A stretch of DNA of 64,000 nt. Source: Escherichia coli (GTDB lineage: Bacteria; Pseudomonadota; Gammaproteobacteria; Enterobacterales; Enterobacteriaceae). Within the stretch, counting starts at the first letter, position 1. Every line of letters starts with the position of its first letter. Below, piece after piece: positions 2,267-37,131 of this stretch. The translations under genes were made by a program, and so were the position numbers. The notes under the pieces were generated by a model. It made no database searches. It saw only the letters and a list, made by a program, of their open reading frames with translations, and was not told where the DNA came from. Location: NCBI RefSeq assembly GCF_024502345.1, contig NZ_JALDNN010000001.1, one strand, 5' to 3'.

Positions 2267-2635
2267 TCACTCACGACACATAAATAACATCTTTGTGGTG
2301 GTTTGATTGATTTTTCCACTCCGCTTACCATCCACACCAAAATAACGATCATCACGACATAATTTTTCTTTAACATCGCAAAATACACCGTTAGCGAATG
2401 TAAATTCGCTGGGATCGTAGCCTTGTAATGATTGTAAGTTTTCAGCGGCTTTTTCGCCGAGATATTTCCTTGTTAACTCTGGGGAAATGCCATCTGAGTT
2501 CACACAAATATACGGGTCGCAAACAACGCCGCACGCCGGAGATTGAAGTCCGCCAGCGTCATTTCCAGACGCCATTGATGAGAACATCATCCCCACACCT
2601 GACAATCCGATATAAAAAATACGCATCATATTCAT
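2267..2635 (-). CDS. ycgJ: Uncharacterised protein YcgJ
   Basis: 122-aa ORF; position between pliG and minC as in K-12. Confidence 0.8.
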   Translation of the reverse strand: MNMMRIFYIGLSGVGMMFSSMASGNDAGGLQSPACGVVCDPYICVNSDGISPELTRKYLGEKAAENLQSLQGYDPSEFTFANGVFCDVKEKLCRDDRYFGVDGKRSGKINQTTTKMLFMCRE

Positions 2636-3154
2636 AGCACATCCTGATAATCCAACCGTACAACACTTATGCTCATTTCATCATCAATCCGTAATCAAAA
2701 CCGCTGACCTGGACGAGTTACGATGACCTGACAGAAGTATCAGACGTCTTCTGCGGTTTCTATGATAGAGCAATTCTGTGGCGGATATTAAGATAACGGG
2801 TATCTGTTCTTTAATGATGCCGCAAAAAATGGAAAGTTAAGAAAGCCTGGCGTGGTGAAAAAATACACTTGCCTCAATACTGGATATTTAAACAGGTCTG
2901 GAGATGCTGTCACGATTAGGGTGCGGAAAAAGGAAGCGTAAATAAGAACAATCAAAAGTACGACGGCAATGGGTTGATTGACAAGGGTATTTTTTAAGCT
3001 ATGAATCAGCGCCATTTATCACTGAATAGACTTTTACTCTGAATAAATGGGAGGGTGACTTGCCTCAATATAATCCAGACTATAACATGCCTTATAGTCT
3101 TCGGAACATCATCGCGCGCTGGCGATGATTAATAGCTAATTGAGTAAGGCCAGG

Positions 3155-3850
3155 ATGTCAAACACGCCAATCGAGCTTAAAGGCAGTAGCTTCACTTTAT
3201 CTGTGGTTCATCTGCATGAGGCAGAACCTAAGGTTATCCATCAGGCGCTGGAAGACAAAATCGCTCAGGCCCCCGCATTTTTAAAACATGCCCCCGTTGT
3301 ACTCAACGTCAGTGCACTGGAAGACCCGGTAAACTGGTCAGCGATGCATAAGGCGGTTTCGGCAACCGGTTTGCGGGTTATTGGCGTAAGTGGCTGCAAA
3401 GATGCGCAACTTAAAGCCGAAATTGAAAAAATGGGGCTGCCTATCCTGACGGAAGGAAAGGAAAAAGCGCCACGTCCAGCTCCCGCACCGCAGGCTCCAG
3501 CGCAAAATACAACGCCGGTCACAAAAACGCGTTTAATAGATACCCCGGTGCGTTCCGGTCAGCGTATTTATGCTCCACAATGTGATCTGATTGTTACAAG
3601 CCACGTTAGCGCTGGGGCCGAATTGATTGCCGATGGTAACATTCATGTCTATGGCATGATGCGCGGTCGTGCGCTGGCAGGGGCAAGTGGTGACCGGGAA
3701 ACGCAAATATTTTGTACGAACCTGATGGCGGAATTGGTGTCCATCGCAGGTGAATACTGGCTGAGTGATCAAATCCCAGCAGAATTTTATGGCAAAGCGG
3801 CGCGACTGCAGTTAGTCGAAAACACTTTGACCGTTCAACCGTTAAATTGA
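3155..3850 (+). CDS. minC: Septum site-determining protein MinC
   Basis: ATG at 3155 gives [21 protein letters not shown]..., 231 aa; the track ORF begins 5 codons upstream at a TTG. Confidence 0.95.
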
Positions 3851-3873: not shown

Positions 3874-4686
3874 ATGGCACGCATTATTGTTGTTACTTCG
3901 GGCAAAGGGGGTGTTGGTAAGACAACCTCCAGCGCGGCCATCGCCACTGGTTTGGCCCAGAAGGGAAAGAAAACTGTCGTGATAGATTTTGATATCGGCC
4001 TGCGTAATCTCGACCTGATTATGGGTTGCGAACGCCGGGTCGTTTACGATTTCGTCAACGTCATTCAGGGCGATGCAACGCTAAATCAGGCGTTAATTAA
4101 AGATAAGCGTACTGAAAATCTCTATATTCTGCCGGCATCGCAAACACGCGATAAAGATGCCCTCACCCGTGAAGGGGTCGCCAAAGTTCTTGATGATCTG
4201 AAAGCGATGGATTTTGAATTTATCGTTTGTGACTCCCCGGCAGGGATTGAAACCGGTGCGTTAATGGCACTCTATTTTGCAGACGAAGCCATTATTACCA
4301 CCAACCCGGAAGTCTCCTCAGTACGCGACTCTGACCGTATTTTAGGCATTCTGGCGTCAAAATCACGCCGCGCAGAAAATGGCGAAGAGCCTATTAAAGA
4401 GCACCTGCTGTTAACGCGCTATAACCCAGGCCGCGTAAGCAGAGGTGACATGCTGAGCATGGAAGATGTGCTGGAGATCCTGCGCATCAAACTCGTCGGC
4501 GTGATCCCAGAGGATCAATCAGTATTGCGCGCCTCTAACCAGGGTGAGCCGGTCATTCTCGACATTAACGCCGATGCGGGTAAAGCCTACGCAGATACCG
4601 TAGAACGTCTGTTGGGAGAAGAACGTCCTTTCCGCTTCATTGAAGAAGAGAAGAAAGGCTTCCTCAAACGCTTGTTCGGAGGATAA
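3874..4686 (+). CDS. minD: Septum site-determining ATPase MinD
   Basis: 270-aa ORF with Walker A GKGGVGKTT; deviant ParA/MinD family. Confidence 0.97.
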   Translation: MARIIVVTSGKGGVGKTTSSAAIATGLAQKGKKTVVIDFDIGLRNLDLIMGCERRVVYDFVNVIQGDATLNQALIKDKRTENLYILPASQTRDKDALTREGVAKVLDDLKAMDFEFIVCDSPAGIETGALMALYFADEAIITTNPEVSSVRDSDRILGILASKSRRAENGEEPIKEHLLLTRYNPGRVSRGDMLSMEDVLEILRIKLVGVIPEDQSVLRASNQGEPVILDINADAGKAYADTVERLLGEERPFRFIEEEKKGFLKRLFGG

Positions 4687-4689
4687 GTT

Positions 4690-4956
4690 ATGGCATTACT
4701 CGATTTCTTTCTCTCGCGGAAGAAAAATACAGCCAACATTGCAAAAGAACGGCTGCAGATTATTGTTGCTGAACGCCGTCGCAGCGATGCAGAACCGCAT
4801 TATCTGCCGCAGTTGCGTAAAGATATTCTTGAGGTCATTTGTAAATACGTACAAATTGATCCTGAGATGGTAACCGTACAGCTTGAGCAAAAAGATGGCG
4901 ATATTTCTATTCTTGAGCTGAACGTGACCTTACCGGAAGCAGAAGAGCTGAAATAA
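4690..4956 (+). CDS. minE: Cell division topological specificity factor MinE
   Basis: 88-aa [34 protein letters not shown]... Confidence 0.97.
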
Positions 4957-4982
4957 TCCCGCTGTAAAAGCGCATTTATCTT

Positions 4983-5014
4983 CAAGGCAGAGTTATCTCT
5001 GCCTTGAGTTTTTC
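4983..5014 (+). terminator. Intrinsic terminator downstream of minE
   Basis: Stem caaggcaga/tctgccttg with loop gttatc, followed by agtttttc. Confidence 0.7.
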
Positions 5015-5103
5015 ATCCCTCTCATCCACGTTGTGGTAAAGCGGCGAGTATTCTTGCTGATACTCCTCATTGCTATTTCCACCTCCCCCTTTACACCTTA
5101 AGG

Positions 5104-6160
5104 GGCTTTGTTGAATAAATCGAACTTTTGCTGAGTTGAAGGATCAGATCACGTATCTTCCCGACAACGCAGACCGTTCCGTGGCAAAGCAAAAGTTCAA
5201 AATCACCAACTGGCCCACCTACAATAAAGCCCTCATCAACCGTGGCTCCATAACTTTCTGGCTGGATGATGAAGCTATTCAGGCCTGGTATGAGTCAGCA
5301 ACACCTTCTTCACGAGGCAGACCTCAGCGCTATTCTGACCTTGCCATCACGACTGTGCTGGTCATTAAACGCGTATTCAGGCTGACCCTGCGCGCTGCGC
5401 AGGGCTTTATTGATTCCATTTTTTCTCTGATGAACGTTCCGCTACGCTGCCCGGATTACAGCTGTGTCAGCAGGCGGGCAAAGTCGGTTAATGTCAGTTT
5501 CAAAACGCCCACCCGGGGTGAAATCGCACACCTGGTAATTGATTCCACCGGGCTGAAGGTCTTCGGTGAAGGCGAGTGGAAAGTCAAAAAGCATGGCCAG
5601 GAACGCCGCCGTATCTGGCGTAAGCTGCATCTCGCCGTTGACAGTAAAACACATGAAATCATCTGCGCTGACCTGTCGCTGAACAACGTTACGGACTCAG
5701 AGGCCTTCCCCGGGTTAATCCGGCAAACCCACCGGAAAATCAGGTCAGCCGCCGCCGATGGCGCTTACGATACCCGGCTATGTCACGATGAACTGCGGCG
5801 TAAGAAAATCAGCGCGCTTATCCCTCCCCGAAAAGGTGCGGGTTACTGGCCCGGTGAATATGCAGACCGTAACCGTGCAGTGGCTAATCAGCGAATGACC
5901 GGGAGTAATGCGCGGTGGAAATGGACAACAGATTACAACCGTCGCTCGATAGCGGAAACGGCGATGTACCGGGTAAAACAGCTGTTCGGGGGTTCACTGA
6001 CACTGCGTGACTACGATGGTCAGGTTGCAGAGGCTATGGCCCTGGTACGAGCGCTGAACAAAATGACGAAAGCAGGTATGCCTGAAAGCGTGCGTATTGC
6101 CTGAAAACACAACCCGCTACGGGGGAGACTTACCCGAAATCTGATTTATTCAACAAAGCC
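5104..6160 (+). mobile_element. IS903-group insertion sequence (IS5 family), copy 1, 1057 bp, no target-site duplication
   Basis: Perfect 18-bp terminal inverted repeats GGCTTTGTTGAATAAATC (5104-5121 and 6143-6160); length 1057 bp; transposase ORF. Flanking 9-mers differ (ACCTTAAGG vs ATCGTGCAC). Confidence 0.93.
5181..6104 (+). CDS. IS903-type transposase (307 aa from GTG at 5181; the track ORF starts at TTG 5136)
   Basis: Translation VAKQKFKITNWPTYNKALINRGSITFWLDDEAIQAWYESATPSSRGRPQRYSDL... matches the IS903/IS102 transposase family from memory. Confidence 0.9.
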   Translation: MAKQKFKITNWPTYNKALINRGSITFWLDDEAIQAWYESATPSSRGRPQRYSDLAITTVLVIKRVFRLTLRAAQGFIDSIFSLMNVPLRCPDYSCVSRRAKSVNVSFKTPTRGEIAHLVIDSTGLKVFGEGEWKVKKHGQERRRIWRKLHLAVDSKTHEIICADLSLNNVTDSEAFPGLIRQTHRKIRSAAADGAYDTRLCHDELRRKKISALIPPRKGAGYWPGEYADRNRAVANQRMTGSNARWKWTTDYNRRSIAETAMYRVKQLFGGSLTLRDYDGQVAEAMALVRALNKMTKAGMPESVRIA

Positions 6161-6208
6161 ATCGTGCACACTACGCAGTCTCACAACTAACAAGAGGTTA
6201 TTATCCTG

Positions 6209-6613
6209 ATGGATCAGGTCGTTGTTTTTCAAAAGATGTTTGAGCAAGTGAGAAAAGAGCAAAACTTCTCCTGGTTTTATTCAGAATTAAAACATCACCG
6301 TATTGCACATTACATTTATTATCTGGCTACGGATAACATCAGAATTATTACTCACGATGACACGGTTTTGTTATTAAGAGGAACCAGGAACCTGTTAAAA
6401 GTTAGTACGACCAAGAACCCTGCTAAAATAAAAGAGGCCGCATTGCTTCATATTTGCGGAAAATCTACATTTCGGGAATACTGTTCAACACTGGCAGACG
6501 CGGGCGTTTTCCGTTGGGTTACTGATGTTAATCATAACAAACGCAGTTACTACGCCATTGATAATACGCTTTTATATATTGAAGATGTAGAAAATAATAA
6601 ACCATTAATCTAG
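6209..6613 (+). CDS. ycgX: DUF1398 family protein, YcgX-like
   Basis: 134-aa ORF immediately upstream of iraM, the K-12 position of ycgX. The protein sequence itself was not matched from memory. Confidence 0.6.
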   Translation: MDQVVVFQKMFEQVRKEQNFSWFYSELKHHRIAHYIYYLATDNIRIITHDDTVLLLRGTRNLLKVSTTKNPAKIKEAALLHICGKSTFREYCSTLADAGVFRWVTDVNHNKRSYYAIDNTLLYIEDVENNKPLI

Positions 6614-6828
6614 CTAAAGTTGGATGCTTAAGAAATGCTTCATAATTCAGTATGGCATTAGCATAATGGGAATAAAAGTACAGAGACTATCCCTATGGAT
6701 GATAAATACTGTCCTTTTATTGCTACCCATAAATAATCACCTGGCCAATACTATCAAATTGATATTTGAAATGTGATCACTTGACTTTCTATACGTTATT
6801 TCATAACGTTTAATATATTTATAAAAAC

Positions 6829-6851
6829 AACGGGCGTGCCATACGCCCGTT
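6829..6851. terminator. Hairpin aacgggcgt-gccat-acgcccgtt in the ycgX-iraM spacer; likely terminator
   Basis: Perfect 9-bp stem; the reverse strand is followed by a T-rich run. About 85% similar over roughly 50 bp to the hairpin at 7689-7711. Confidence 0.5.
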
Positions 6852-7308
6852 TCAATACTTAACGCACATGTGTTTTGGTTTAGTCATCATCCAGTTATAT
6901 GTATTTTAGCCAGGAACAGGTTAAACCTTTCCTATATAACTCAAAAATTGAAACCTTATTCTCATGTCATGCTTATATTCATTATTATCGTTATATAAAA
7001 AGGCAACCATAATGTTTAGCAAATTGGCACAAAGTAGCATAAAGGCTATGTTTTAATTACAGGATGGTCAGTCATTTGAATGTATAACATTATAGCTAAA
7101 CAAATCTAAAACGAAGTGAATAATTTATTGTTTTCACTAAATCTCATTTTGTTTAACATCCATTGAGATTCCTTGCTTTAAATTTTGTTTTATATAAGCA
7201 ATTGTTTTAATTAATTTATTTTTTGAAGGGGTAATATACTCATATGCAAAATAAAGAAATGAACATCCAAATGAACTATATTAAATACCGTGGGATAAGA
7301 CATAACAA

Positions 7309-7632
7309 ATGAAGTGGGTAGTAATTGACACGGTAATTCAACCTACATGCGGCATATCTTTTTCAGCCATATGGGGTGATATGAAAATGATTATCTGGTA
7401 TCAATCTACTATATTTCTTCCTCCTGGAAGTATATTTACACTGGTTAAGCCTGGTATTATCCTTAAGGATAAAGAATATCCTATAACTATTTATAACATT
7501 GCACCATTCAACAAGAATTTATGGAGTTTACTCAAAAGCAGTCAAGAGTGTCCTCCAGGAGAAAGCGAAATAACAAATAAATGTTTGCATAAGAGTTGTA
7601 TTATAAAAATATGCCCATATGGGCTCAAGTAA
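7309..7632 (+). CDS. iraM: Anti-adaptor protein IraM (stabilises RpoS against RssB)
   Basis: 107-aa [44 protein letters not shown]...; long AT-rich upstream region; adjacent to icd. Confidence 0.85.
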
Positions 7633-7688
7633 TGGGTTTTATATAAATATGCTCGATATGCTATTAATAATATCCACATAAATAAAAC

Positions 7689-7711
7689 AACGGGCGTGTT
7701 ATACGCCCGTT
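7689..7711. terminator. Bidirectional intrinsic terminator between convergent iraM and icd
   Basis: Stem aacgggcgt/acgcccgtt with loop gttat; on the reverse strand it is followed by GTTTTATTTAT, directly downstream of the icd stop. Confidence 0.7.
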
Positions 7712-7734
7712 TAAATATTTAACACATGTAGTGA

Positions 7735-8985
7735 TTACATATTTTTGATGATCGCATCACCAAACTCTGAACATTTCAGCAGTTTAGCGCCTTCCATCAG
7801 ACGTTCGAAGTCATAGGTTACGGTCTTCGCATTGATTGCGCCTTCCATACCTTTAACAATCAGGTCTGCGGCTTCGGTCCAACCCATGTGGCGTAACATC
7901 ATCTCAGCAGAGAGAATAATAGAACCTGGGTTAACTTTGTCCTGACCGGCATATTTCGGCGCAGTACCGTGGGTGGCTTCAAACAGGGCGCATTCGTCAC
8001 CGATGTTTGCACCAGGGGCGATACCGATACCGCCAACCTGCGCTGCCAGGGCGTCAGAAATGTAGTCACCGTTCAGGTTCATACAGGCGATAACATCATA
8101 TTCAGCCGGACGCAGCAGGATCTGTTGCAGGAATGCATCAGCAATCACGTCTTTAATGACGATCTCTTTGCCGGTATTCGGGTTTTTAACTTTCAGCCAC
8201 GGGCCGCCGTCGATCAGTTCACCGCCAAATTCTTCACGCGCCAGCTGGTAGCCCCAGTCTTTAAACGCGCCTTCGGTGAACTTCATGATGTTGCCTTTGT
8301 GCACCAGGGTCACAGAGTCACGATCGTTAGCAATTGCGTATTCGATCGCTGCACGAACCAGACGTTTGGTGCCTTCTTCAGAACACGGCTTAATACCGAT
8401 ACCGCAATGTTCCGGGAAGCGAATTTTCTTCACGCCCATCTCTTCACGCAGGAATTTAATCACTTTCTCGGCGTCGGCAGAGTCAGCTTTCCATTCGATA
8501 CCCGCATAAATGTCTTCCGAGTTTTCACGGAAGATAACCATATCGGTCAGTTCAGGGTGTTTAACCGGGCTTGGAGTGCCCTGATAGTAACGTACCGGAC
8601 GCAGGCAGATGTAGAGATCCAGTTCCTGGCGCAGGGCAACGTTCAGAGAGCGAATACCGCCACCAACCGGAGTGGTCAGCGGGCCTTTAATGGCAACGCG
8701 ATATTCACGAATCAGATCAAGGGTTTCAGCAGGCAGCCAGACATCCTGACCATAAACCTGTGTGGATTTTTCACCGGTGTAAATTTCCATCCAGGAGATT
8801 TTACGCTCGCCTTTATAGGCTTTCTCGACTGCAGCGTCGACCACTTTCAGCATGGCTGGGGTTACATCTACACCGATTCCATCACCTTCAATGTAAGGGA
8901 TAATCGGATTTTCAGGAACGTTGAGTTTGCCGTTTTGCAGGGTGATCTTCTTGCCTTGTGCCGGAACAACTACTTTACTTTCCAT
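7735..8985 (-). CDS. icd: Isocitrate dehydrogenase (NADP)
   Basis: 416-aa [41 protein letters not shown]...; no prophage is attached to its 3' end. Confidence 0.97.
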
Positions 8986-9156
8986 TCACCTCTCCTTCGA
9001 GCGCTACTGGTTTGCTCGTCTGCCACCACGTTGCATATGCGTTTGCGTCCTGCGATACGGATGCTTTAGAGCAATTTTTTGTTAATGATTTGTAATTGGC
9101 TTGTCAATACTACCCTATTGTTTGCCGTCATGAAAGATGCGCGTTATTAGGCTATA

Positions 9157-9810
9157 ATGCGGCAATTCATAATCTCTGAAAATACCATGCAAAAAACTTC
9201 TTTTAGAAATCACCAGGTTAAGCGATTCAGCTCGCAACGTTCTACCAGGCGTAAACCTGAAAACCAGCCCACGCGTGTGATCCTGTTCAATAAACCCTAC
9301 GATGTTCTTCCGCAGTTCACCGATGAAGCCGGACGCAAAACATTAAAAGAATTCATCCCGGTTCAGGGCGTTTATGCAGCAGGTCGTCTTGACCGCGATA
9401 GCGAAGGGTTACTGGTGCTGACCAATAACGGCGCGTTGCAGGCGCGTTTAACCCAGCCGGGCAAACGCACCGGGAAAATCTATTATGTGCAGGTGGAAGG
9501 TATTCCCACACAAGACGCACTTGAAGCCTTGCGCAATGGCGTAACCTTAAATGATGGCCCTACCCTGCCCGCCGGCGCGGAGCTGGTTGACGAACCTGCG
9601 TGGTTATGGCCGCGGAATCCACCAATTCGTGAACGCAAAAGTATTCCCACCAGCTGGCTGAAGATCACCTTATATGAAGGACGTAATCGCCAGGTGCGCC
9701 GCATGACCGCCCATGTTGGCTTCCCCACGCTGCGACTGATTCGTTATGCGATGGGTGATTACACTTTGGATAATCTCGCTAACGGCGAATGGCGAGAAGC
9801 GACAGAATAA
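9157..9810 (+). CDS. rluE: 23S rRNA pseudouridine(2457) synthase RluE
   Basis: 217-aa ORF, pseudouridine synthase family; divergent from icd as in K-12. Confidence 0.9.
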
Positions 9811-17133: not shown

Positions 17134-18363
17134 TCACGACTTCCGTTGCGCCGTTAACTCGGCAATACGGACGATCACCTGCACCGCTTTTTCCATACCT
17201 TCCAGAGTCACAAACTCATGCTTACCATGATAGTTGTAACCGCCAGTGAACAGGTTCGGGCACGGTAATCCCATAAACGACAACTGCGCGCCGTCGGTAC
17301 CACCGCGGATCGGTTTCAGTTCCGGTTCAATATCGCAGTCACGCATCGCCTGCTGGGCGATATCGAGAATATGCGGATGCTCAACCACTTTCTCGCGCAT
17401 ATTGTAGTAACTGTCTTCAATCACCAATTCAATGTAGCAATCAGGATGTAACCCTTTGCCCACTTTTTTGGCGATCTCCATCATTTTACGTTTACGCGCT
17501 TCAAACTGTTTACGGTCGAAATCACGGATGATGTAGTGCATATCGGCCCGTTCAACGGTGCCTTTCATGCTCGCCAGGTGATAGAAACCTTCATAGCCTT
17601 CTGTCATTTCCGGGCTTTCATCCGCCGGAACTTCCGCATGAATACGTGCCGCCAGCGACAGCGCATTTACCATCACTCCTTTCGCCGTACCCGGGTGAAC
17701 ATTGTTACCGACAATTTTGATATTGACCGACGCGGCGTTGAAGTTTTCAAACTCCAGTTCGCCTACGCCACCACCATCAACAGTGTAAGCCCAGCGGGCA
17801 TCGAAGGCGTCAACATCAAAATGTTTCGCCCCTTTGCCCACTTCTTCATCCGGGGTAAAGGCGACGCGAATATCACCATGCGGAATGTTTTTCTGTTGCA
17901 ATACCGCCAGCGCGGTCATGATTTCTGCAATACCGGCTTTGTCATCGGCACCTAACAAGGTTTTACCATCGGTAGTAATCAGCGTCTGACCCAGTAGCTG
18001 ATGCAGCACCGGGAACATAACCGGTGATAAAACTTCATCGCCGATACCCAGCGCAATATCGCCACCGCGATAGTTTTCAACAATTTGCGGATTCACATTT
18101 TTGCCGCTGCAATCCGGTGAGGTATCCACATGAGAAATAAAGCCAATCGCCGGGATATCGCCAGGGACGTTAGCCGGTAACGTCGCCATCAAAGTGCCCT
18201 TCTCACTTAAGGTCACATTGATAAGCCCCATCTCTTCGAGCTGCTCTTTCAGCAGATGCAATAACTTCCATTGGCCTTCCGTGCTGGGAACCTGTCTCAC
18301 CCCTGCTTTTGATTGGGTATCCAGAGACACGTAGTTCAAAAATCGCTCAAGTAGTTTATCCAT
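17134..18363 (-). CDS. pepT: Peptidase T (tripeptide aminopeptidase)
   Basis: Translation [35 protein letters not shown]... from the ATG at 18361-18363; the track ORF extends 14 codons upstream. Confidence 0.93.
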
Positions 18364-18612
18364 GTAGTCACCCTCACTTTTTGTGACAACATTATTAAGA
18401 AGCAAGAAAAGACAAATATTGCGTCAGGTCACTTTTACCCCTGCAAGCGGGAATATTTATCAGCATTACCTTAATCAATATAAAGCTAAGCCAGTAATTC
18501 ACAACAAAGATTGGCGATTCAAGCGGTTTGCCGTAGAATTACCGCCCTCATTAAGAGTCACCAAGGTGGTTAACCACAAACCCCGCATCGGTAAGCCATC
18601 CGTTGCGTTTAC

Positions 18613-19749
18613 ATGGGACAGAGTAAAAAATTGAATAAACAACCGAGTTCGCTTTCACCGCTGGTGCAATTGGCGGGAATTCGCAAATGCTTTGATGGTA
18701 AAGAGGTCATTCCCCAGCTGGATCTGACTATCAACAATGGCGAGTTCCTCACGCTGCTTGGCCCTTCTGGCTGCGGTAAAACAACCGTTCTTCGCCTGAT
18801 TGCAGGTCTGGAAACTGTTGATTCCGGACGCATCATGTTGGATAACGAGGACATCACCCACGTTCCGGCGGAAAACCGCTATGTGAACACTGTTTTCCAA
18901 AGCTACGCACTTTTCCCCCACATGACCGTGTTCGAAAATGTGGCCTTTGGGTTGCGCATGCAAAAAACCCCCGCTGCTGAAATTACGCCCCGCGTGATGG
19001 AAGCCCTGCGGATGGTGCAGCTGGAAACCTTCGCTCAACGTAAACCGCATCAGCTCTCTGGTGGTCAACAGCAACGCGTCGCCATTGCTCGCGCGGTGGT
19101 TAACAAGCCTCGTCTGTTGTTGCTGGATGAGTCGCTCTCAGCGCTGGATTACAAACTGCGCAAGCAAATGCAGAACGAGCTGAAAGCGTTACAGCGTAAG
19201 CTTGGCATTACATTCGTCTTCGTGACTCACGACCAGGAAGAAGCACTCACCATGTCGGACAGGATTGTGGTGATGCGCGATGGTCGCATTGAGCAAGACG
19301 GCACGCCGCGTGAAATCTACGAAGAGCCGAAAAACCTGTTTGTTGCCGGGTTCATTGGCGAAATCAATATGTTTAACGCCACTGTCATCGAACGTCTCGA
19401 CGAGCAGCGCGTACGCGCCAACGTTGAAGGCCGCGAATGTAATATCTACGTTAACTTCGCCGTTGAACCGGGGCAAAAACTGCATGTTCTGCTGCGCCCG
19501 GAAGACTTACGTGTTGAAGAGATTAACGACGACAACCACGCTGAAGGGCTGATTGGTTACGTTCGCGAGCGTAACTACAAAGGCATGACGCTGGAGTCGG
19601 TTGTTGAACTGGAAAATGGCAAGATGGTGATGGTCAGCGAATTCTTCAATGAAGACGATCCTGACTTTGACCACTCTCTCGACCAAAAAATGGCCATTAA
19701 TTGGGTAGAAAGCTGGGAGGTCGTACTGGCTGATGAAGAACACAAGTAA
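18613..19749 (+). CDS. potA: Spermidine/putrescine ABC transporter ATPase PotA
   Basis: 378-aa ORF with Walker [10 protein letters not shown] and ABC signature LSGGQQQRV. Confidence 0.96.
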
Positions 19750-22481: not shown

Positions 22482-22943
22482 ATGAGTCAGGACAGTAAAG
22501 TTTTCTTTCGTATATTCTTCGGTATCGGTCTGGTACTGATCCTCATTTCTGTTGTTATCTTTTATAACCAGTTCACCTATAGCAAAGACGCGATTCATAC
22601 CGAAGGCGTCATTGTTGATACCGTCTTGCACTCCAGTCATTCTCATCGCACGGGTAAAAATGGTTCGTGGTATCCCGTCGTTGCCTTTCGACCGACGCCA
22701 GATTACACGCTAATTTTCAATTCGAGTATTGGCAGCGATTTTTATGAAGACAGCGAAGGCGATAAAGTTAATGTTTATTATTCTCCCGGGCATCCTGAAA
22801 AGGCTGAGATAAATAACCCGTGGGTTAATTTTTTTAAATGGGGGTTTATCGGCATTATGGGCGTTATTTTTATCGCCGTCGGTTTATTAATCAGTATGCC
22901 CTCCTCTAAAAAATCACGCAGGAAACGGAAGTCCCGTCCATGA
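22482..22943 (+). CDS. ymfA: Inner membrane protein YmfA (DUF3592)
   Basis: 153-aa ORF with two hydrophobic segments; synteny after potD. Confidence 0.85.
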
Positions 22944-22981
22944 AAAAAATCATAATACTGCTCAGTTTACTGATACTTCTG

Positions 22982-22990
22982 CCTCTGACG
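22982..22990. repeat. Target-site duplication (left copy) of IS903 copy 2
   Basis: CCTCTGACG immediately 5' of the IS; identical 9-mer at 24048-24056. Confidence 0.9.
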
Positions 22991-24047
22991 GGCTTTGTTG
23001 AATAAATCGAACTTTTGCTGAGTTGAAGGATCAGATCACGTATCTTCCCGACAACGCAGACCGTTCCGTGGCAAAGCAAAAGTTCAAAATCACCAACTGG
23101 CCCACCTACAATAAAGCCCTCATCAACCGTGGCTCCATAACTTTCTGGCTGGATGATGAAGCTATTCAGGCCTGGTATGAGTCAGCAACACCTTCTTCAC
23201 GAGGCAGACCTCAGCGCTATTCTGACCTTGCCATCACGACTGTGCTGGTCATTAAACGCGTATTCAGGCTGACCCTGCGCGCTGCGCAGGGCTTTATTGA
23301 TTCCATTTTTTCTCTGATGAACGTTCCGCTACGCTGCCCGGATTACAGCTGTGTCAGCAGGCGGGCAAAGTCGGTTAATGTCAGTTTCAAAACGCCCACC
23401 CGGGGTGAAATCGCACACCTGGTAATTGATTCCACCGGGCTGAAGGTCTTCGGTGAAGGCGAGTGGAAAGTCAAAAAGCATGGCCAGGAACGCCGCCGTA
23501 TCTGGCGTAAGCTGCATCTCGCCGTTGACAGTAAAACACATGAAATCATCTGCGCTGACCTGTCGCTGAACAACGTTACGGACTCAGAGGCCTTCCCCGG
23601 GTTAATCCGGCAAACCCACCGGAAAATCAGGTCAGCCGCCGCCGATGGCGCTTACGATACCCGGCTATGTCACGATGAACTGCGGCGTAAGAAAATCAGC
23701 GCGCTTATCCCTCCCCGAAAAGGTGCGGGTTACTGGCCCGGTGAATATGCAGACCGTAACCGTGCAGTGGCTAATCAGCGAATGACCGGGAGTAATGCGC
23801 GGTGGAAATGGACAACAGATTACAACCGTCGCTCGATAGCGGAAACGGCGATGTACCGGGTAAAACAGCTGTTCGGGGGTTCACTGACACTGCGTGACTA
23901 CGATGGTCAGGTTGCAGAGGCTATGGCCCTGGTACGAGCGCTGAACAAAATGACGAAAGCAGGTATGCCTGAAAGCGTGCGTATTGCCTGAAAACACAAC
24001 CCGCTACGGGGGAGACTTACCCGAAATCTGATTTATTCAACAAAGCC
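22991..24047 (+). mobile_element. IS903-group insertion sequence, copy 2, 1057 bp, flanked by a 9-bp target-site duplication
   Basis: Same terminal repeats and encoded proteins as copy 1; direct orientation; perfect 9-bp duplication. Confidence 0.95.
23068..23991 (+). CDS. IS903-type transposase (307 aa from GTG; the track ORF starts at 23023)
   Basis: Identical to the transposase of copy 1. Confidence 0.9.
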   Translation: MAKQKFKITNWPTYNKALINRGSITFWLDDEAIQAWYESATPSSRGRPQRYSDLAITTVLVIKRVFRLTLRAAQGFIDSIFSLMNVPLRCPDYSCVSRRAKSVNVSFKTPTRGEIAHLVIDSTGLKVFGEGEWKVKKHGQERRRIWRKLHLAVDSKTHEIICADLSLNNVTDSEAFPGLIRQTHRKIRSAAADGAYDTRLCHDELRRKKISALIPPRKGAGYWPGEYADRNRAVANQRMTGSNARWKWTTDYNRRSIAETAMYRVKQLFGGSLTLRDYDGQVAEAMALVRALNKMTKAGMPESVRIA

Positions 24048-24056
24048 CCTCTGACG
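24048..24056. repeat. Target-site duplication (right copy) of IS903 copy 2
   Basis: CCTCTGACG immediately 3' of the IS. Confidence 0.9.
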
Positions 24057-24819
24057 GTAACCAGTAAGCCCTTAATCCCAATAATGAAGACACTTTTTAC
24101 GGATGTTACAGGTACTGTACCGGATGCTGAGGAGATTGCGCGGAAAGCGGAGCTTTTTCGTCAACAAACAGGGATTGCGCCGTTTATCGTGGTTGTACCT
24201 GGCGTTAATGAAGCAAGCTTCAGGCAAAATGGCAAAGCGATGCTGGCGCATGCGTCATCTTCATTGAGTGATGTAAAAGGAAGTGTTCTGTTACTTTTTA
24301 CTACACGCGAGCCACGGTTAATTATGATAACCAACGGCCATGTTGAAAGCAGCATGGACGATAAGCATCTCGGCCTTCTGGTAGAAAATCACACGCTGGC
24401 TTATTTACATGCGGATCTCTGGTATCAGGGAATCAATAATGCATTGGCTGTTTTACAAGCACAGATATTAAAACAACCGACGCCGCCACTGACATATTAT
24501 CCGCATCCCGGACAACAGCAGGAGAATGATCCTCCCGGCAGCACCACGACATTAGGCCTTTTTGCCTGGGCGGTTGCATTTATCGTCTTTACTGCATTTT
24601 TTAACTACACGACGCGCCTTAATTATGCATTAAAATTTGCAGTGGCGATGACTATTGCCAATATGGGCTATCAGGCTTTATGCCTGTATATCGATAATAG
24701 CTTTGCGATTACCAGAATATCGCCACTCTGGGCAGGGCTGATTGGTGTCTGTACGTTTATTGCCGCGTTGTTATTGACGAGTAAACGGTAAAAGAGATAG
24801 TAAAATGCGTGTGTATTAT

Positions 24820-24913
24820 GCCGGATGCGACGCGAACGCCTTATCCGGCCCACAAACCCGCAAATTCAATTAATTGCGTCCCCTTGTAGGCCTGATAAGC
24901 GTAGCGCATCAGG
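24820..24913. repeat. REP/BIME element between ycfZ and cobB
   Basis: gccggatgcgacgcgaacgccttatccggcc and inverted gtaggcctgataagcgtagcgcatcaggc. Confidence 0.75.
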
Positions 24914-24927
24914 CAATGCTTCCTGCT

Positions 24928-25749
24928 TTATAATCCCTTCAGCAACTTTTCAACAAATTCTGGCACCACCTGGCTTGCCGGGCCGTAATATTTCTCGGCA
25001 AATTCATTACCAACCTGACTCGGTTCAAGATTCAGTTCCACGGTGTGCGCGCCATGCAGTTTCGCTTCGTGAACAAACCCAGCCGCCGGATAAACATGCC
25101 CCGAAGTACCAATGGCAATGAAAATATCGGCCATCGACAACGCCATATAAATTTCATCCATGCCGAGTGGCATTTCGCCAAACCACACTACGTGCGGGCG
25201 CAAGGGTGCCGGGAACTGGCAGCAATGGCATTTATCTTCTGGGGTAACGTCTCCGGTCCAGTCGAGAACCTGACCACTTTGTGAACAACGAACTTTCAGC
25301 AGTTCCCCATGCATATGAATCACATTGGTATTACCTGCGCGTTCATGCAGGTTGTCTATATTCTGCGTCACCAGCAAAAAGCGATCGCCGAGAGCATCTT
25401 GCAGTTTAGCCAGCGCAAGATGCGCGGCGTTAGGCTGAATTTCTGGCTGCTGCAGCTGTCGACGACGGGCGTTATAAAACGCTTGCACCAGTTCAGGATC
25501 GCGATCGAAACCTTCCGGCGTTGCCACATCTTCAACCCGATGTTCTTCCCACAGGCCATCTGCGGCGCGAAAGGTACGAATACCTGATTCCGCAGAAATT
25601 CCTGCCCCTGTCAGTACGAGTACTCTTGGTTTTTCCATTGCTTCCGGCACCACTTTATCTCTGAAAAAAATACGCTGACGCAAACGCTCGCGCAGGCGGC
25701 GTTTATTTTTACGAAAACGACTTAACCGATGACCCCGACGCGACAGCAT
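24928..25749 (-). CDS. cobB: NAD-dependent protein deacylase CobB (sirtuin)
   Basis: 273-aa ORF with sirtuin motifs ([14 protein letters not shown], zinc CxxC pairs); a shorter isoform would start at MEKPRVLVL. Confidence 0.93.
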
Positions 25750-25764
25750 AGCAACCTCTGTTGT

Positions 25765-26676
25765 TTAATCGGTTAGATGTAGGAAGGCCGCACCACGCAT
25801 TCCTCCCACATCACCGTGGCGCGCGCGTTCAATGCGCGGAACACGAGCTACAGGTAAGAGATGACGAGGCAGCCTGTCCGCCAGTTGCGTTGTGATTGCC
25901 GGGAAATTCGATAAGCCACCACCAATGACGACCAGGTCAGGGTCAACGATGGTCAGGATATTTCCCAGACAAACCGCTAATAAATCCAGATAACGCTCAA
26001 CGTGCGCCCTTGCCTGCTCGTCGCCTTGATCATAAAGCGCAATAATTTCGGGAGCCTGCAACGGTTGATGATAATAGTGTTGATACAGCCACGCAAAACC
26101 GCGACCAGACAGATAATTTTCAATGCAGCCATGCTGACCACAGCCGCAGCGGCGTAACGGGAAATCCAACCCCATCATGGTTAACGCATCAACCGGCAGA
26201 CGCATATGGCCAAACTCGCCGGTAATGTAGCTTTTCCCGGTAATCGGTTTGCCGTTGAAAATCAGCCCGCCGCCAACGCCAGTGCCGAGAATCAACCCCA
26301 TCACCAGTGGATATTGAGTAAATTCATCATCCCAGGCTTCTGAAAGGGCAAAACAGTTGGCATCGTTATCAAGGCGTACATCGCGATCAAGACGTGCGCT
26401 CAGGTCGGCACGCAGCGGTTTACCGCTGGCAGCGGGGACATTGGCGGCATACAGCGTACCATCTTCTGTTTCCGGCATTCCCGGAATACCGATGCCGACA
26501 GAACCTTTACAGCCAAAACGTTGGTCAGCTTCAGCTACCAGCTCACACACTGCATCTAAAAATGCGTCATAGCTGTCACGCGGTGTCGGCACCCGCTTTT
26601 CCAACTGCAACTGCCGACCGCTATCAAACACGCCAAGCGCAATTTTTGTTCCACCAATATCAAACCCGTAATACAT
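25765..26676 (-). CDS. nagK: N-acetyl-D-glucosamine kinase NagK
   Basis: ATG at 26674-26676 gives [17 protein letters not shown]..., 303 aa, ROK family. Confidence 0.93.
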
Positions 26677-26704
26677 TGCCGCTCCTTGTTTTAATGTACT
26701 GCCT

Positions 26705-29953
<3,249 letters not shown>

Positions 29954-30103
29954 TCAATCGGCTAAATTGCCATGTTTTATCATCAATCTTGCCGCCTGAT
30001 CTTAATCTGAAAAATCATCCAATACAGACAGATACCCATTACACCTCGGGTCATAACCCGCAGGATCAACCGCATGTAAATTAAAAAAGAGCGTGTTGTC
30101 CTG

Positions 30104-31177
30104 ATGAAACAAAAAGAGCTATGGATTAACCAGATCAAAGGGTTATGTATTTGTCTGGTGGTGATTTATCACTCGGTCATTACCTTTTATCCGCATATGA
30201 CCACTTTTCAGCATCCGTTATCGGAAGTCCTGAGCAAATGCTGGATCTATTTCAATCTTTACCTTGCACCCTTTCGTATGCCGGTTTTTTTCTTTATATC
30301 CGGCTATTTGATTCGCCGCTATATCGACAGCGTACCGTGGGGAAATTGTCTCGATAAACGGATCTGGAACATCTTCTGGGTGCTGGCGCTTTGGGGCGTG
30401 GTGCAGTGGCTGGCGTTAAGTGCGCTGAACCAGTGGCTGGCACCTGAGCGCGATTTAAGCAATGCCTCCAATGCCGCTTATGCCGATTCCACCGGTGAGT
30501 TCCTGCACGGGATGATCACCGCCAGCACCAGCTTGTGGTATCTGTATGCGTTAATTGTCTATTTCGTGGTATGTAAAATTTTTAGCCGTCTGGCGCTGCC
30601 ACTATTCGCCTTGTTTGTACTGCTGAGTGTGGCGGTTAATTTCGTTCCCACGCCGTGGTGGGGAATGAACAGTGTGATCCGCAATTTGCCTTATTACAGC
30701 CTTGGCGCATGGTTTGGCGCAACATTAATGACCTGTGTTAAAGAGGTGCCGTTGCGCCGCCATCTGCTGATGGCTTCTTTGCTGACCGTTCTGGCGGTCA
30801 GTGCCTGGTTGTTTACAATCTCGCTGCTGTTGTCGCTGGTATCGATTGTGGTGATCATGAAGCTATTTTATCAATACGAGCAACGTTTCGGTATGCGCTC
30901 CACCAGCCTGCTGAATGTGATTGGCTCCAACACCATTGCTATCTACACCACCCATCGCATTCTGGTTGAAATATTCAGCTTAACTCTGCTTGCGCAAATG
31001 AACGCTGCACGCTGGTCGCCGCAAGTCGAACTGACACTCCTGCTGGTTTATCCCTTTGTCAGTTTGTTCATCTGTACTGTTGCGGGCTTGCTGGTAAGAA
31101 AACTTTCACAGCGTGCATTCAGCGATCTGTTGTTCTCCCCGCCTTCACTGCCCGCTGCCGTCAGTTACTCCCGCTAA
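30104..31177 (+). CDS. ycfT: Inner membrane acyltransferase-family protein YcfT
   Basis: 357-aa multi-pass membrane ORF; synteny between lolC and mfd. Confidence 0.85.
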   Translation: MKQKELWINQIKGLCICLVVIYHSVITFYPHMTTFQHPLSEVLSKCWIYFNLYLAPFRMPVFFFISGYLIRRYIDSVPWGNCLDKRIWNIFWVLALWGVVQWLALSALNQWLAPERDLSNASNAAYADSTGEFLHGMITASTSLWYLYALIVYFVVCKIFSRLALPLFALFVLLSVAVNFVPTPWWGMNSVIRNLPYYSLGAWFGATLMTCVKEVPLRRHLLMASLLTVLAVSAWLFTISLLLSLVSIVVIMKLFYQYEQRFGMRSTSLLNVIGSNTIAIYTTHRILVEIFSLTLLAQMNAARWSPQVELTLLLVYPFVSLFICTVAGLLVRKLSQRAFSDLLFSPPSLPAAVSYSR

Positions 31178-31304
31178 GCCATCGCCCCAGGCGGGGCGAT
31201 TCAATTTGCTAAACCATGTCGATTACGGATAATGAACAGCATTGCTTATCAGAGATATGCCCCCATATGTTGAGGCATATCCTAACGAGAATCTGACAAC
31301 CGTT

Positions 31305-34300
31305 ATGCCTGAACAATATCGTTATACGCTGCCCGTCAAAGCGGGTGAGCAGCGTCTGCTGGGCGAGTTAACCGGCGCTGCCTGCGCGACGCTGGTGGCG
31401 GAAATTGCCGAACGTCACGCCGGTCCGGTGGTACTCATTGCACCAGATATGCAAAATGCTCTGCGTTTGCATGATGAAATCAGCCAGTTCACCGATCAGA
31501 TGGTGATGAATCTGGCGGACTGGGAAACCCTCCCTTACGACAGTTTTTCGCCTCATCAGGACATTATCTCCTCGCGCCTTTCCACCCTTTACCAGCTACC
31601 GACGATGCAGCGTGGCGTACTGATTGTTCCGGTGAATACGCTTATGCAGCGCGTTTGCCCACACAGTTTTCTCCACGGTCATGCGCTGGTGATGAAAAAA
31701 GGTCAGCGCCTGTCACGAGATGCATTACGAACCCAACTGGACAGCGCCGGTTATCGCCATGTTGACCAGGTGATGGAGCACGGCGAATACGCCACGCGCG
31801 GCGCGTTGCTGGATCTCTTCCCGATGGGGAGTGAGCTGCCTTATCGTCTTGATTTCTTTGATGATGAAATCGACAGTCTGCGGGTGTTTGACGTCGACAG
31901 CCAGCGCACGCTGGAGGAAGTAGAAGCGATCAATCTGCTGCCCGCGCACGAATTTCCGACCGATAAAGCGGCAATTGAACTGTTCCGCAGCCAGTGGCGC
32001 GATACCTTCGAAGTGAAGCGCGATCCGGAACATATTTACCAGCAAGTGAGTAAAGGCACATTACCTGCCGGGATCGAGTACTGGCAGCCATTGTTCTTCA
32101 GCGAACCACTGCCGCCGCTGTTCAGTTATTTCCCTGCCAATACCTTGCTGGTGAATACTGGCGATCTGGAAAACAGTGCCGAACGTTTCCAGGCTGACAC
32201 GCTGGCGCGTTTTGAGAATCGCGGCGTCGATCCGATGCGCCCACTGTTGCCACCACAATCGCTCTGGCTGCGGGTGGACGAGCTCTTCTCAGAGCTGAAA
32301 AACTGGCCGCGGGTGCAGCTAAAAACTGAACATTTACCGACAAAAGCCGCGAATGCCAATTTAGGTTTCCAGAAACTGCCAGACCTGGCCGTTCAGGCAC
32401 AACAAAAAGCGCCGCTGGATGCGCTGCGTAAGTTCCTCGAGACTTTCGACGGTCCGGTGGTGTTCTCGGTAGAAAGTGAAGGTCGCCGTGAAGCGCTGGG
32501 TGAACTGCTCGCGCGAATTAAAATTGCTCCGCAACGCATTATGCGTCTTGATGAAGCCAGCGACCGTGGGCGTTATCTGATGATTGGCGCTGCCGAACAT
32601 GGTTTTGTCGATACGGTACGTAATCTTGCGCTGATTTGTGAAAGCGATCTGCTCGGTGAACGCGTTGCCCGCCGTCGTCAGGACTCTCGCCGCACCATCA
32701 ACCCCGATACACTGATCCGCAACCTCGCGGAGCTGCATATTGGTCAGCCGGTAGTCCATCTGGAGCACGGCGTCGGTCGTTATGCCGGAATGACTACGCT
32801 CGAAGCTGGCGGCATTACCGGCGAGTACCTGATGCTCACCTATGCCAACGACGCCAAACTGTATGTTCCGGTGTCGTCACTGCATCTGATTAGCCGTTAC
32901 GCAGGTGGAGCGGAAGAAAACGCCCCGCTGCATAAACTTGGCGGTGATGCGTGGTCACGCGCGCGGCAGAAAGCGGCGGAAAAAGTGCGTGATGTGGCGG
33001 CGGAATTGCTGGATATCTACGCGCAACGCGCCGCCAAAGAGGGCTTCGCGTTTAAACACGATCGTGAGCAGTATCAGTTGTTCTGCGACAGCTTCCCGTT
33101 TGAAACCACGCCGGATCAGGCTCAAGCCATTAATGCGGTGCTTAGCGACATGTGTCAGCCACTGGCAATGGATCGTCTGGTGTGCGGCGATGTTGGCTTT
33201 GGTAAAACAGAAGTGGCTATGCGCGCCGCTTTCCTGGCAGTAGATAACCACAAGCAGGTGGCGGTGCTGGTGCCTACCACCCTTCTCGCGCAGCAGCATT
33301 ACGACAACTTCCGCGACCGTTTCGCCAACTGGCCGGTACGTATCGAAATGATCTCCCGTTTCCGCAGCGCCAAAGAGCAAACGCAAATCCTTGCGGAAGT
33401 GGCGGAAGGGAAAATCGATATTCTGATCGGTACGCACAAACTGCTGCAAAGTGACGTCAAGTTTAAAGATTTAGGCCTGCTGATTGTCGATGAAGAACAC
33501 CGCTTCGGGGTGCGTCATAAAGAGCGCATTAAAGCGATGCGCGCGAACGTGGATATTCTGACGCTTACTGCAACGCCGATCCCACGTACGCTGAATATGG
33601 CAATGAGCGGAATGCGTGACCTGTCGATTATCGCCACGCCGCCCGCCCGTCGTCTGGCAGTTAAAACCTTTGTCCGTGAGTATGACAGCCTGGTGGTCCG
33701 GGAGGCGATCCTGCGTGAAATTTTGCGCGGAGGACAGGTTTATTATCTCTACAATGATGTGGAAAACATTCAGAAAACCGCCGAACGGCTGGCAGAACTG
33801 GTGCCAGAAGCGCGGATCGCCATCGGTCACGGGCAGATGCGCGAGCGCGAACTGGAACGGGTGATGAATGATTTCCATCATCAACGTTTCAACGTGCTGG
33901 TTTGTACCACCATTATCGAAACCGGAATCGATATCCCTACCGCCAACACCATTATCATTGAACGCGCGGATCACTTCGGTCTGGCGCAGCTGCACCAGTT
34001 ACGCGGTCGCGTCGGACGTTCGCATCATCAGGCATATGCATGGTTGCTGACACCGCATCCAAAAGCGATGACTACCGATGCACAAAAACGTCTTGAAGCG
34101 ATTGCCTCGCTGGAAGATCTCGGTGCAGGTTTTGCGCTGGCAACGCACGATCTGGAGATCCGCGGCGCGGGTGAACTGCTTGGCGAAGAACAAAGCGGCT
34201 CAATGGAAACCATCGGTTTCTCGCTGTATATGGAGTTGCTGGAAAACGCCGTCGATGCACTGAAAGCCGGACGCGAGCCGTCGCTGGAAGATCTCACCAG

Positions 34301-34751
34301 CCAGCAAACAGAAGTCGAGCTGCGGATGCCGTCGCTATTGCCAGATGATTTCATTCCTGACGTGAATACGCGTTTGTCGTTCTATAAACGTATTGCCAGC
34401 GCCAAAACGGAAAACGAACTGGAAGAGATCAAAGTCGAGCTTATCGATCGCTTCGGCCTGCTGCCAGATCCGGCGCGTACCCTGCTGGATATTGCCCGTT
34501 TGCGCCAGCAAGCGCAGAAACTGGGGATCAGGAAGCTGGAAGGTAATGAGAAAGGCGGGGTGATCGAATTTGCCGAGAAGAATCACGTTAATCCGGCCTG
34601 GTTGATTGGTTTGCTGCAAAAACAGCCGCAGCATTACCGCCTTGATGGTCCGACGCGCCTGAAATTTATTCAGGATTTGAGTGAGCGGAAAACGCGTATC
34701 GAATGGGTACGCCAGTTTATGCGTGAACTGGAAGAGAACGCGATCGCTTAA
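31305..34751 (+). CDS. mfd: Transcription-repair coupling factor Mfd
   Basis: ATG at 31305 gives MPEQYRYTLPVKAGEQRLLGELTG..., 1148 aa; helicase motifs GDVGFGKTEVA and DEEH. Confidence 0.97.
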   Translation: MPEQYRYTLPVKAGEQRLLGELTGAACATLVAEIAERHAGPVVLIAPDMQNALRLHDEISQFTDQMVMNLADWETLPYDSFSPHQDIISSRLSTLYQLPTMQRGVLIVPVNTLMQRVCPHSFLHGHALVMKKGQRLSRDALRTQLDSAGYRHVDQVMEHGEYATRGALLDLFPMGSELPYRLDFFDDEIDSLRVFDVDSQRTLEEVEAINLLPAHEFPTDKAAIELFRSQWRDTFEVKRDPEHIYQQVSKGTLPAGIEYWQPLFFSEPLPPLFSYFPANTLLVNTGDLENSAERFQADTLARFENRGVDPMRPLLPPQSLWLRVDELFSELKNWPRVQLKTEHLPTKAANANLGFQKLPDLAVQAQQKAPLDALRKFLETFDGPVVFSVESEGRREALGELLARIKIAPQRIMRLDEASDRGRYLMIGAAEHGFVDTVRNLALICESDLLGERVARRRQDSRRTINPDTLIRNLAELHIGQPVVHLEHGVGRYAGMTTLEAGGITGEYLMLTYANDAKLYVPVSSLHLISRYAGGAEENAPLHKLGGDAWSRARQKAAEKVRDVAAELLDIYAQRAAKEGFAFKHDREQYQLFCDSFPFETTPDQAQAINAVLSDMCQPLAMDRLVCGDVGFGKTEVAMRAAFLAVDNHKQVAVLVPTTLLAQQHYDNFRDRFANWPVRIEMISRFRSAKEQTQILAEVAEGKIDILIGTHKLLQSDVKFKDLGLLIVDEEHRFGVRHKERIKAMRANVDILTLTATPIPRTLNMAMSGMRDLSIIATPPARRLAVKTFVREYDSLVVREAILREILRGGQVYYLYNDVENIQKTAERLAELVPEARIAIGHGQMRERELERVMNDFHHQRFNVLVCTTIIETGIDIPTANTIIIERADHFGLAQLHQLRGRVGRSHHQAYAWLLTPHPKAMTTDAQKRLEAIASLEDLGAGFALATHDLEIRGAGELLGEEQSGSMETIGFSLYMELLENAVDALKAGREPSLEDLTSQQTEVELRMPSLLPDDFIPDVNTRLSFYKRIASAKTENELEEIKVELIDRFGLLPDPARTLLDIARLRQQAQKLGIRKLEGNEKGGVIEFAEKNHVNPAWLIGLLQKQPQHYRLDGPTRLKFIQDLSERKTRIEWVRQFMRELEENAIA

Positions 34752-34894
34752 TGGTAAATCGGGGGCGTTTCTGCGCCCCCATCTGCAACATTTACAAATT
34801 CTTTGCACTTCCCTGCACTATCCGACACTGTCACCATCCATAATTCAGGCTTATCTGTTTATTACAATAACCTTATATTTATTATGGATTTTTG

Positions 34895-35857: not shown

Positions 35858-35875
35858 ATCCTGGATAAAAAAAAT

Positions 35876-35900
35876 CCCCGCGACACGGCATGTCGCGGGG
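35876..35900. terminator. Bidirectional intrinsic terminator between ldtC and bhsA
   Basis: ccccgcgaca-cggca-tgtcgcgggg flanked by A-runs and T-runs on both sides. Confidence 0.8.
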
Positions 35901-35939
35901 AAAAAATCAGCAGTAGCAGGCATTAATGAGGGTTAATGC

Positions 35940-36197
35940 TTATTTATAAATTACTGCTGTTCCATGGAGGGTATTCGGACCGGTTACAGAAGTAATACGG
36001 AAAGATTTTGCGCCCATCTCATCCGCTTTTTGCGCCAGCTGCTCTTCCAGCGATCCCAGATTTGTCCCCGCGTTAGCACTGATTGTACCGACTTTTTGTT
36101 GGCCTTCTGGCGTTGACTGAACTTCGACAGCCGCAAAGCTGGCAAATGACATGGAGCTTAAAATCGCCGCAGCGATGAGGGTTTTTACGTTTTTCAT
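35940..36197 (-). CDS. bhsA: Multiple stress resistance protein BhsA (YcfR/ComC)
   Basis: 85-aa ORF with signal peptide, YdgH/BhsA/McbA family. Confidence 0.9.
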   Translation of the reverse strand: MKNVKTLIAAAILSSMSFASFAAVEVQSTPEGQQKVGTISANAGTNLGSLEEQLAQKADEMGAKSFRITSVTGPNTLHGTAVIYK

Positions 36198-36265
36198 AAT
36201 AGTGGCCTTATGCAGATGAATGACGTCGCAAGCAATTACTTAACGATCGATAACTAAATGATAGA

Positions 36266-36281
36266 TGTGATCTTGATCACA
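36266..36281. promoter_or_regulatory. Perfect 16-bp palindrome TGTGATCTTGATCACA in the bhsA-comR intergenic region (CRP-like or ComR operator candidate)
   Basis: TGTGA-N6-TCACA matches the CRP core consensus; about 70 bp upstream of the bhsA start. Confidence 0.4.
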
Positions 36282-37070: not shown

Positions 37071-37082
37071 GTCGCAAAAAAA

Positions 37083-37109: not shown

Positions 37110-37131
37110 CAAATTGCAGAGTACAGCCTTG

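Follow-up and report, generated by a model that had tools for sequence, protein, structure and literature searches.

An intact IS903B element at the probable joint of an IS-generated deletion between minE and ycgX in Escherichia coli

Introduction

IraM is an anti-adaptor that protects RpoS, and a change in the transcription of its gene could therefore bear on RpoS stability. In the 64-kb stretch of Escherichia coli DNA analysed here (the window), an insertion sequence (IS) of the IS903 group ends a short distance upstream of ycgX, which is followed by iraM. The initial annotation proposed that read-through or an outward promoter from this IS end could change the expression of ycgX and possibly of iraM. 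The locus thus raises the question of whether the right end of the element really governs the genes beyond it and, before that, of how the element came to lie between minE and ycgX.

Results and discussion

Identity of the IS element

The element and its second copy in the window have the following features.

5104..6160, + strand: complete IS903B of 1057 bp (IS5 family, IS903 group), with perfect 18-bp terminal inverted repeats (TIRs) and without a target-site duplication
5181..6104, + strand: transposase gene, 307-aa form read from GTG 5181, taken from the list of open reading frames (ORFs); the longest ORF starts at TTG 5136
22991..24047, + strand: second copy of IS903B (100% identity, same orientation), flanked by a perfect 9-bp duplication, CCTCTGACG

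The TIRs of the copy upstream of ycgX, GGCTTTGTTGAATAAATC, occupy 5104-5121 (+ strand) and 6143-6160 (− strand) and are both perfect over 18 bp; the two arms of the element pair over 33 nt. The pattern GGCTTTGTTGAATAAATC occurs four times in the 64-kb window against an expectation of zero, which corresponds to two IS copies. The transposase is recognized by the NCBIfam model transpos_IS5_2 (357 bits, cut-off 140), and Pfam DDE_Tnp_1_5 and DDE_Tnp_1 also match. Over its full 1057 bp the DNA at 5104..6160 is 100% identical to elements annotated as IS903B, a name that rests on the PGAP label 'IS5-like element IS903B family' carried by the transposase of the matching records. Such identical elements were found in E. 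coli chromosomes and in plasmids of E. coli, Salmonella and Citrobacter; in the copy of strain PCP06173, a comparison limited to annotations gives a transposase CDS of 924 bp.

A length of about 1057 bp, 18-bp TIRs, a single IS5-family DDE transposase and near-identity of the DNA all place the element in the IS903 group. In length, TIRs and single DDE ORF it is the same as IS903B/IS903, and no difference was seen in the element itself; compared with known IS903B, only the insertion site of this copy is new. The name IS903 given to it originally is thus right as to the group, the exact variant being IS903B. The 9-bp target-site duplication of the group is missing at 5104..6160, which marks a secondary rearrangement and does not count against the identity of the element. 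Inside the transposase ORF, at 5386..5404 (+ strand), there is a terminator-like GC-rich hairpin of eight pairs (seven GC) with CTTTATTGAT after it; this structure might dampen transcription of the transposase gene as well as any read-through in the direction of ycgX.

The copy at 22991..24047, which differs from that at 5104..6160 at no position, is an internal control for the appearance of a simple insertion. It splits a TPM-domain gene (ycfZ-like, ATG at 22941; 22941..24791) 50 nt into the ORF, and a DUF3592 gene (ymfA-like, 22482..22943) lies directly before the split gene. The two direct IS903B copies bracket 16.8 kb that include ycgX, iraM, icd, purB, phoPQ and potABCD.

A probable deletion joint between minE and ycgX

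To the left of the element, the window holds the end of the min operon.

4690..4956, + strand: minE, the last gene left of the joint (Pfam MinE, E = 1.2e-24)
4981..5008, + strand: minCDE intrinsic terminator, with TTTTT after a 12-bp stem (terminator scan)
5095..5103, no strand assigned: left flank ACCTTAAGG, the last run collinear with K-12, 147 bp past the minE stop (alignment)

Simple insertion of IS903-group elements duplicates 9 bp of the target. No target-site duplication surrounds the element at 5104..6160, where the left flank reads ACCTTAAGG and the right flank ATCGTGCAC; 9-bp duplications were present in all three IS903-group simple insertions found near the locus, in strains GD33, W409 and FAHZZU7007. 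Both flanks are collinear with K-12 MG1655 and O78 strain 3 exactly to the IS termini. On the left, where minD and minE lie upstream of the IS, identity to K-12 and O78 strain 3 is 99.6-99.8% up to 5103. In K-12 the two flanks are 10,976 bp apart (positions 30133 and 19156 of locus L004, corresponding to chromosome 1,213,156..1,224,131), and the K-12 segment between them has no match anywhere in the 64-kb window.

One intact IS without a duplication, flanks that are not adjacent in an IS-free genome and breaks exactly at the IS termini together make up the picture of an adjacent deletion. The element at 5104..6160, an intact IS903B, probably sits at the joint of an IS-generated deletion. It is not a simple insertion, a point missed in the initial annotation; it is most likely the scar of a deletion of about 11 kb, since IS903 is known to make adjacent deletions.

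The figure of about 11 kb is measured against K-12, as the search gave no close relative in the ancestral state. In O78 strain 3, which is the closest genome over ycgX-iraM, an ISKpn26 event has already taken away part of the region; from an ancestor like this strain, 5,278 bp would have been lost. When a closer relative was sought among 5,426 complete genomes to define the ancestral state, the best reached 99.1% identity over 22 kb and was too distant, so that in this lineage the deletion may differ in size from the K-12 figure. That best match concerns 24048..46000, compared with 99.6-99.8% identity of ycgX-iraM-icd to O78-type strains; the source lineage is poorly represented among complete genomes, and the region 24048..46000 may be mosaic.

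Transcripts of minE should stop before the IS, judging from the minCDE terminator at 4981..5008 and its predicted fold (−19.8 kcal/mol, z = −6.7). A small hairpin, CCCTTTACACCTTAAGGGG followed by CTTTGTTGAA, lies at 5087..5105 (+ strand); it is completed by the junction, because the IS left end supplies its final two bases, and is probably a chance structure.

Formation of the joint

IS903 has been reported to yield adjacent deletions commonly through a cointegrate, or replicative, pathway (PMC11708052; PMC12670165). The most economical account of the sequence would be a single IS903B insertion, either just past the minCDE terminator or just before ycgX (the one sequence is compatible with either flank as the original site), and then intramolecular replicative transposition into a nearby site of the same chromosome. 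This adjacent deletion would have removed the intervening ~11 kb (bluR...ycgI) and left one IS copy without target duplication.

RecA-dependent homologous recombination between two direct IS903B repeats, one after minE and one before ycgX, would likewise leave one IS with unrelated flanks, and the material for it exists: several identical IS903B copies stand in direct orientation in the genome (two in the window), and IS903B has inserted repeatedly into this AT-rich region in other strains. However, recombination requires two separate prior insertions, neither junction was seen as an intermediate in the 5,426 complete genomes, the species representatives or the metagenome contigs, and adjacent deletion is a documented common outcome of IS903. 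We consider recombination unlikely and rank it below adjacent deletion; the functional conclusions are equal for both, because the end product is identical. An assembly artefact, in which two real IS903B copies around an intact bluR...ycgI segment were collapsed into one, is suggested by the 100% identity of the two window copies over 1057 bp, longer than short reads. Against such a collapse, the second copy was cleanly assembled with its duplication, the window retains no trace of the 11-kb segment, comparable IS-bordered deletions occur in complete genomes, and about 9% of complete E. coli genomes are without bluR-bluF, all of which makes an artefact very unlikely.

The joint itself was searched for in other genomes. 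The left junction was present in none of the 5,426 complete E. coli genomes, and the right junction was matched in them only by two-piece joins to IS copies at other sites. As exact patterns, both junctions were absent from species-representative genomes (one per bacterial species) and metagenome contigs. The whole minE-IS-ycgX-iraM block gave few high-coverage matches in the 5,426 complete genomes, and these were two-piece joins with IS903B at a different nearby site.

Genes lost with the deleted segment

The K-12 interval that is absent here comprises bluR, bluF, ycgZ, ymgA, ariR, ymgC, pdeG, ymgF, ycgH', ymgD, ymgG, ymgI, ymgJ and ycgI', together with 172 of the 220 bp of the bluR-ycgX intergenic region. 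The blue-light and cold module BluR-BluF-YcgZ/YmgA/AriR and the gene for PdeG have therefore been lost. Classical EHEC O157:H7, Salmonella and Yersinia are without the blue-light/biofilm module (Tschowri et al. 2012, PMC3509220), and the whole module is likewise missing here; unlike in the known module-less strains, an IS903B scar marks the loss, which has spared ycgX and iraM. Among the 5,426 complete E. coli genomes, bluR-bluF was found in 4,930 (leaving the ~9% mentioned above) and ycgX in 5,013. Strains that have lost the blue-light unit are a minority, though a well-known one.

Transcription of ycgX next to the IS end

Between the right end of the element and the end of ycgX, the window contains the following.

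6161..6208, + strand: the 48 bp that remain from the bluR-ycgX intergenic region (220 bp), holding only the ycgX leader and its Shine-Dalgarno sequence AAGAGG (6192-6197)
6209..6613, + strand: ycgX, intact, a prophage-related DUF1398 gene (Pfam DUF1398, E = 1.1e-47; 133/134 residues identical to K-12 YcgX)

The geometry on which the regulatory proposal was built is confirmed. The gap between IS end and ycgX spans 48 bp (6161..6208), with the ATG at 6209 in the orientation of the IS, and transposase, ycgX and iraM are all on the + strand. Since the deletion took most of the intergenic region and the co-directional upstream gene bluR, ycgX is left without its native upstream region. Among the DNA removed is the best native ycgX promoter candidate, TGTTATAAT, which is a perfect extended −10 some 180 bp before the ATG.

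Promoters were searched for by consensus matching only. On the + strand, the standard scan turned up no sigma-70-like site scoring 9/12 or better between 6100 and 6208, and neither it nor a permissive scan detected in 5900..6208 a sigma-70-like outward or hybrid promoter able to start upstream of the ycgX ATG; by this measure, the IS end holds no such promoter. All that the permissive scan retrieved was ATGGCC-17-CAAAAT (7/12) inside the IS and a pair of native −10-like hexamers whose last bases, 6204 and 6207, precede the ATG by 2-5 bp. These hexamers would give no ycgX mRNA with a ribosome-binding site, because they are too near the ATG. No terminator or stable structure was found between the transposase stop and ycgX (z = +0.74), so read-through out of the IS would be the only plausible input into ycgX. 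It is expected to be weak, because the best match to a transposase promoter in the permissive scan, CTGAGT-17-TATCTT, scores only 7/12. The remaining transcription of ycgX is probably weak read-through from the IS, at a low level.

It has been suggested for this locus that the IS903B right end activates ycgX, and possibly iraM, by an outward or hybrid promoter or by strong read-through from the transposase gene, altering RpoS stability. The co-directional genes, the 48-bp gap with its intact ribosome-binding site and the terminator-free path from the transposase stop speak for such activation, as does the poor plus-strand U-tract past the hairpin at 6829-6851, which would make this an inefficient block on the way to iraM. 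Outward promoters have also been reported in the terminal part of Paracoccus IS903-group elements, tested in Paracoccus hosts (PMC3281130). However, neither scan offers a usable site: the standard one is empty at the 9/12 level in 6100..6208, and the permissive one gives only the 7/12 match within the IS and the hexamers too close to the ATG. For aphA1 transposons with IS102 (IS903 group) at their borders, the promoter is proposed to be in the passenger DNA and not in the IS (PMC12670165), and the IS903B papers found describe gene disruption, not activation. Moreover, iraM lies about 1.15 kb downstream, past ycgX, ymgL, a stable hairpin and ymgK, and has its full upstream region. Activation from the IS end is, on balance, quite improbable.

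In the literature we found no report of an enterobacterial IS903 or IS903B activating a downstream gene, the sole demonstration being that of the Paracoccus IS903-group elements. IS5 insertions alter the regulation of the flhDC and ybeJ-gltJKL-ybeK operons. The present arrangement resembles those IS5 cases and Paracoccus in that the IS shortly precedes, in the same direction, a poorly expressed gene that is AT-rich and was acquired horizontally; in contrast to the activating elements, no promoter-like sequence is detectable at the present IS end.

The claim that the IS changes ycgX expression is thus reasonable in one respect, as expression is very probably altered through the native upstream region lost at the deletion joint, and fails in the other, no outward promoter having been found in either scan. 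As for read-through into ycgX, the path is free of terminators, and only a weak flow along it is plausible.

The ycgX-iraM spacer and iraM

Downstream of ycgX, the features relevant to iraM are these.

6614..7308, + strand: AT-rich ycgX-iraM spacer of 695 bp (~27-32% GC by composition), the whole upstream region of iraM, which the IS leaves unaltered
6666..6776, + strand: ymgL, a small-protein gene of 36 aa (ORF, annotated at the collinear position in relatives)
6824..6866, no strand assigned: a further copy of the icd terminator region, diverged to 88% (direct repeat D1, inverted repeat I3), with the hairpin at 6829-6851
7012..7056, + strand: ymgK, a small-protein gene of 14 aa, MFSKLAQSSIKAMF (from the sequence)
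7309..7632, + strand: iraM, intact (NCBIfam IraM, 168 bits; 99/107 residues identical to K-12 IraM)
7689..7711, − strand: hairpin of the icd terminator, which is the reference copy of the repeat (repeats, terminator scan, fold)

The spacer is collinear with O78 strain 3 at 99.76%. Its two small-protein genes, ymgL and ymgK, are a correction to the initial annotation: YmgL protein has been detected in K-12, and the ymgK peptide MFSKLAQSSIKAMF matches K-12 YmgK (PMC6001520 for both). In an Rfam scan of 4600..9200 (E <= 1), only four sub-threshold chance matches to structured RNAs were retrieved.

The hairpin at 6829..6851 had been read as a probable terminator between ycgX and iraM. The stem is there, and a 61-nt plus-strand fold containing it has −18.2 kcal/mol. 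It is a copy of the icd terminator with its T-tract on the minus strand, the only one on which it scored as a terminator (tail GUUUUUAUAA); the plus-strand tail, UUCAAUACUU, is a poor U-tract. For transcripts from ycgX the hairpin would be a weak block at best. The 43-nt direct repeat (88%) to which it belongs, at 6824..6866 and 7684..7726, brackets an 860-bp ymgK-iraM segment and also occurs in K-12; it may be the remnant of an attachment-site duplication left by an old integration beside icd. The icd gene (7735..8985) is convergent with iraM. Prophage e14 is absent at 7632..7735; icd is intact and ~100 bp from iraM, compared with 15 kb of e14 separating the two in K-12.

The description of an AT-rich iraM promoter region of some 700 bp between the IS and iraM was accurate, as was the caution that an effect on iraM is uncertain. 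From the sequence, such an effect appears unlikely, because the complete ~700-bp upstream region is kept and activation of iraM by PhoP has been reported (PMC11825808). Read-through from the IS, or a non-consensus outward promoter of the type known from the Paracoccus IS903-group elements, might make ycgX constitutive, and part of this transcription might pass the hairpin into ymgK-iraM and raise basal IraM and RpoS stability without PhoPQ; we regard this as very improbable.

Other IS events at the locus

Losses bordered by an IS were also seen at this locus in other strains. In PCP06173, an independent parallel, IS903B without a duplication lies between truncated ycgH and truncated bluR. Strain 81 has IS1A at a deletion joint between a ymgJ-proximal remnant and ycgX, and N9, 1008S19 and KMi029 have IS1A losses with the same match pattern. 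In O78 strain 3, ISKpn26 lies between ycgH and bluR. Common to these IS-bordered losses is the replacement of part of ycgI...bluR by an IS, with ycgX-ymgL-ymgK-iraM-icd intact. The end points in the window differ from those in the other strains. Its loss, from 147 bp past minE to 48 bp before ycgX, is the largest among the inspected cases, and only here among them does IS903B cut away most of the ycgX upstream region.

Insertions were observed at further positions. The IS903B of GD33 coincides with the candidate TGTTATAAT −10, 183 bp before ycgX; in W409 an IS903-group element is inserted in bluR, and in FAHZZU7007 IS903B precedes iraM by 78 bp. Within the compared loci, the IS positions are 5095..6151 (L001), 4001..5057 (L002), ~17850..18900 (L003), ~3020..3800 (L005), 2504..3560 (L006) and 2501..3556 (L007). 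The shared orientation of IS903B copies near ycgX was considered as evidence and rejected, the sample being biased because the search joins only same-strand pieces. Overall, the locus has repeatedly been struck by IS903B, IS1 and ISKpn26, through insertion or loss, across E. coli lineages, and the window adds one further independent case. It is a new allele of a known phenomenon, an IS903B-mediated deletion of an ordinary kind.

Implications

The regulatory idea about ycgX and iraM matters only if expression is really altered, and the sequence gives no positive sign of this. If it were true, ycgX would be freed from whatever control the deleted upstream region gave, and, together with the lost input of BluR/BluF-YcgZ/YmgA/AriR to Rcs, the event would amount to a one-step, IS-driven rewiring of stress and biofilm control. 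The chief value of the finding lies in annotation and in the interpretation of the strain, from which the whole BluR/BluF blue-light and low-temperature pathway is missing. Loss of the BluR/BluF-YcgZ/YmgA/AriR pathway and of PdeG is the most concrete biological consequence of the deletion, and because the BluR/BluF (ycgZ-ymgA-ariR-ymgC) pathway and PdeG are gone, any biofilm, curli, colanic-acid or acid-resistance phenotypes that require this pathway should differ from those of K-12.
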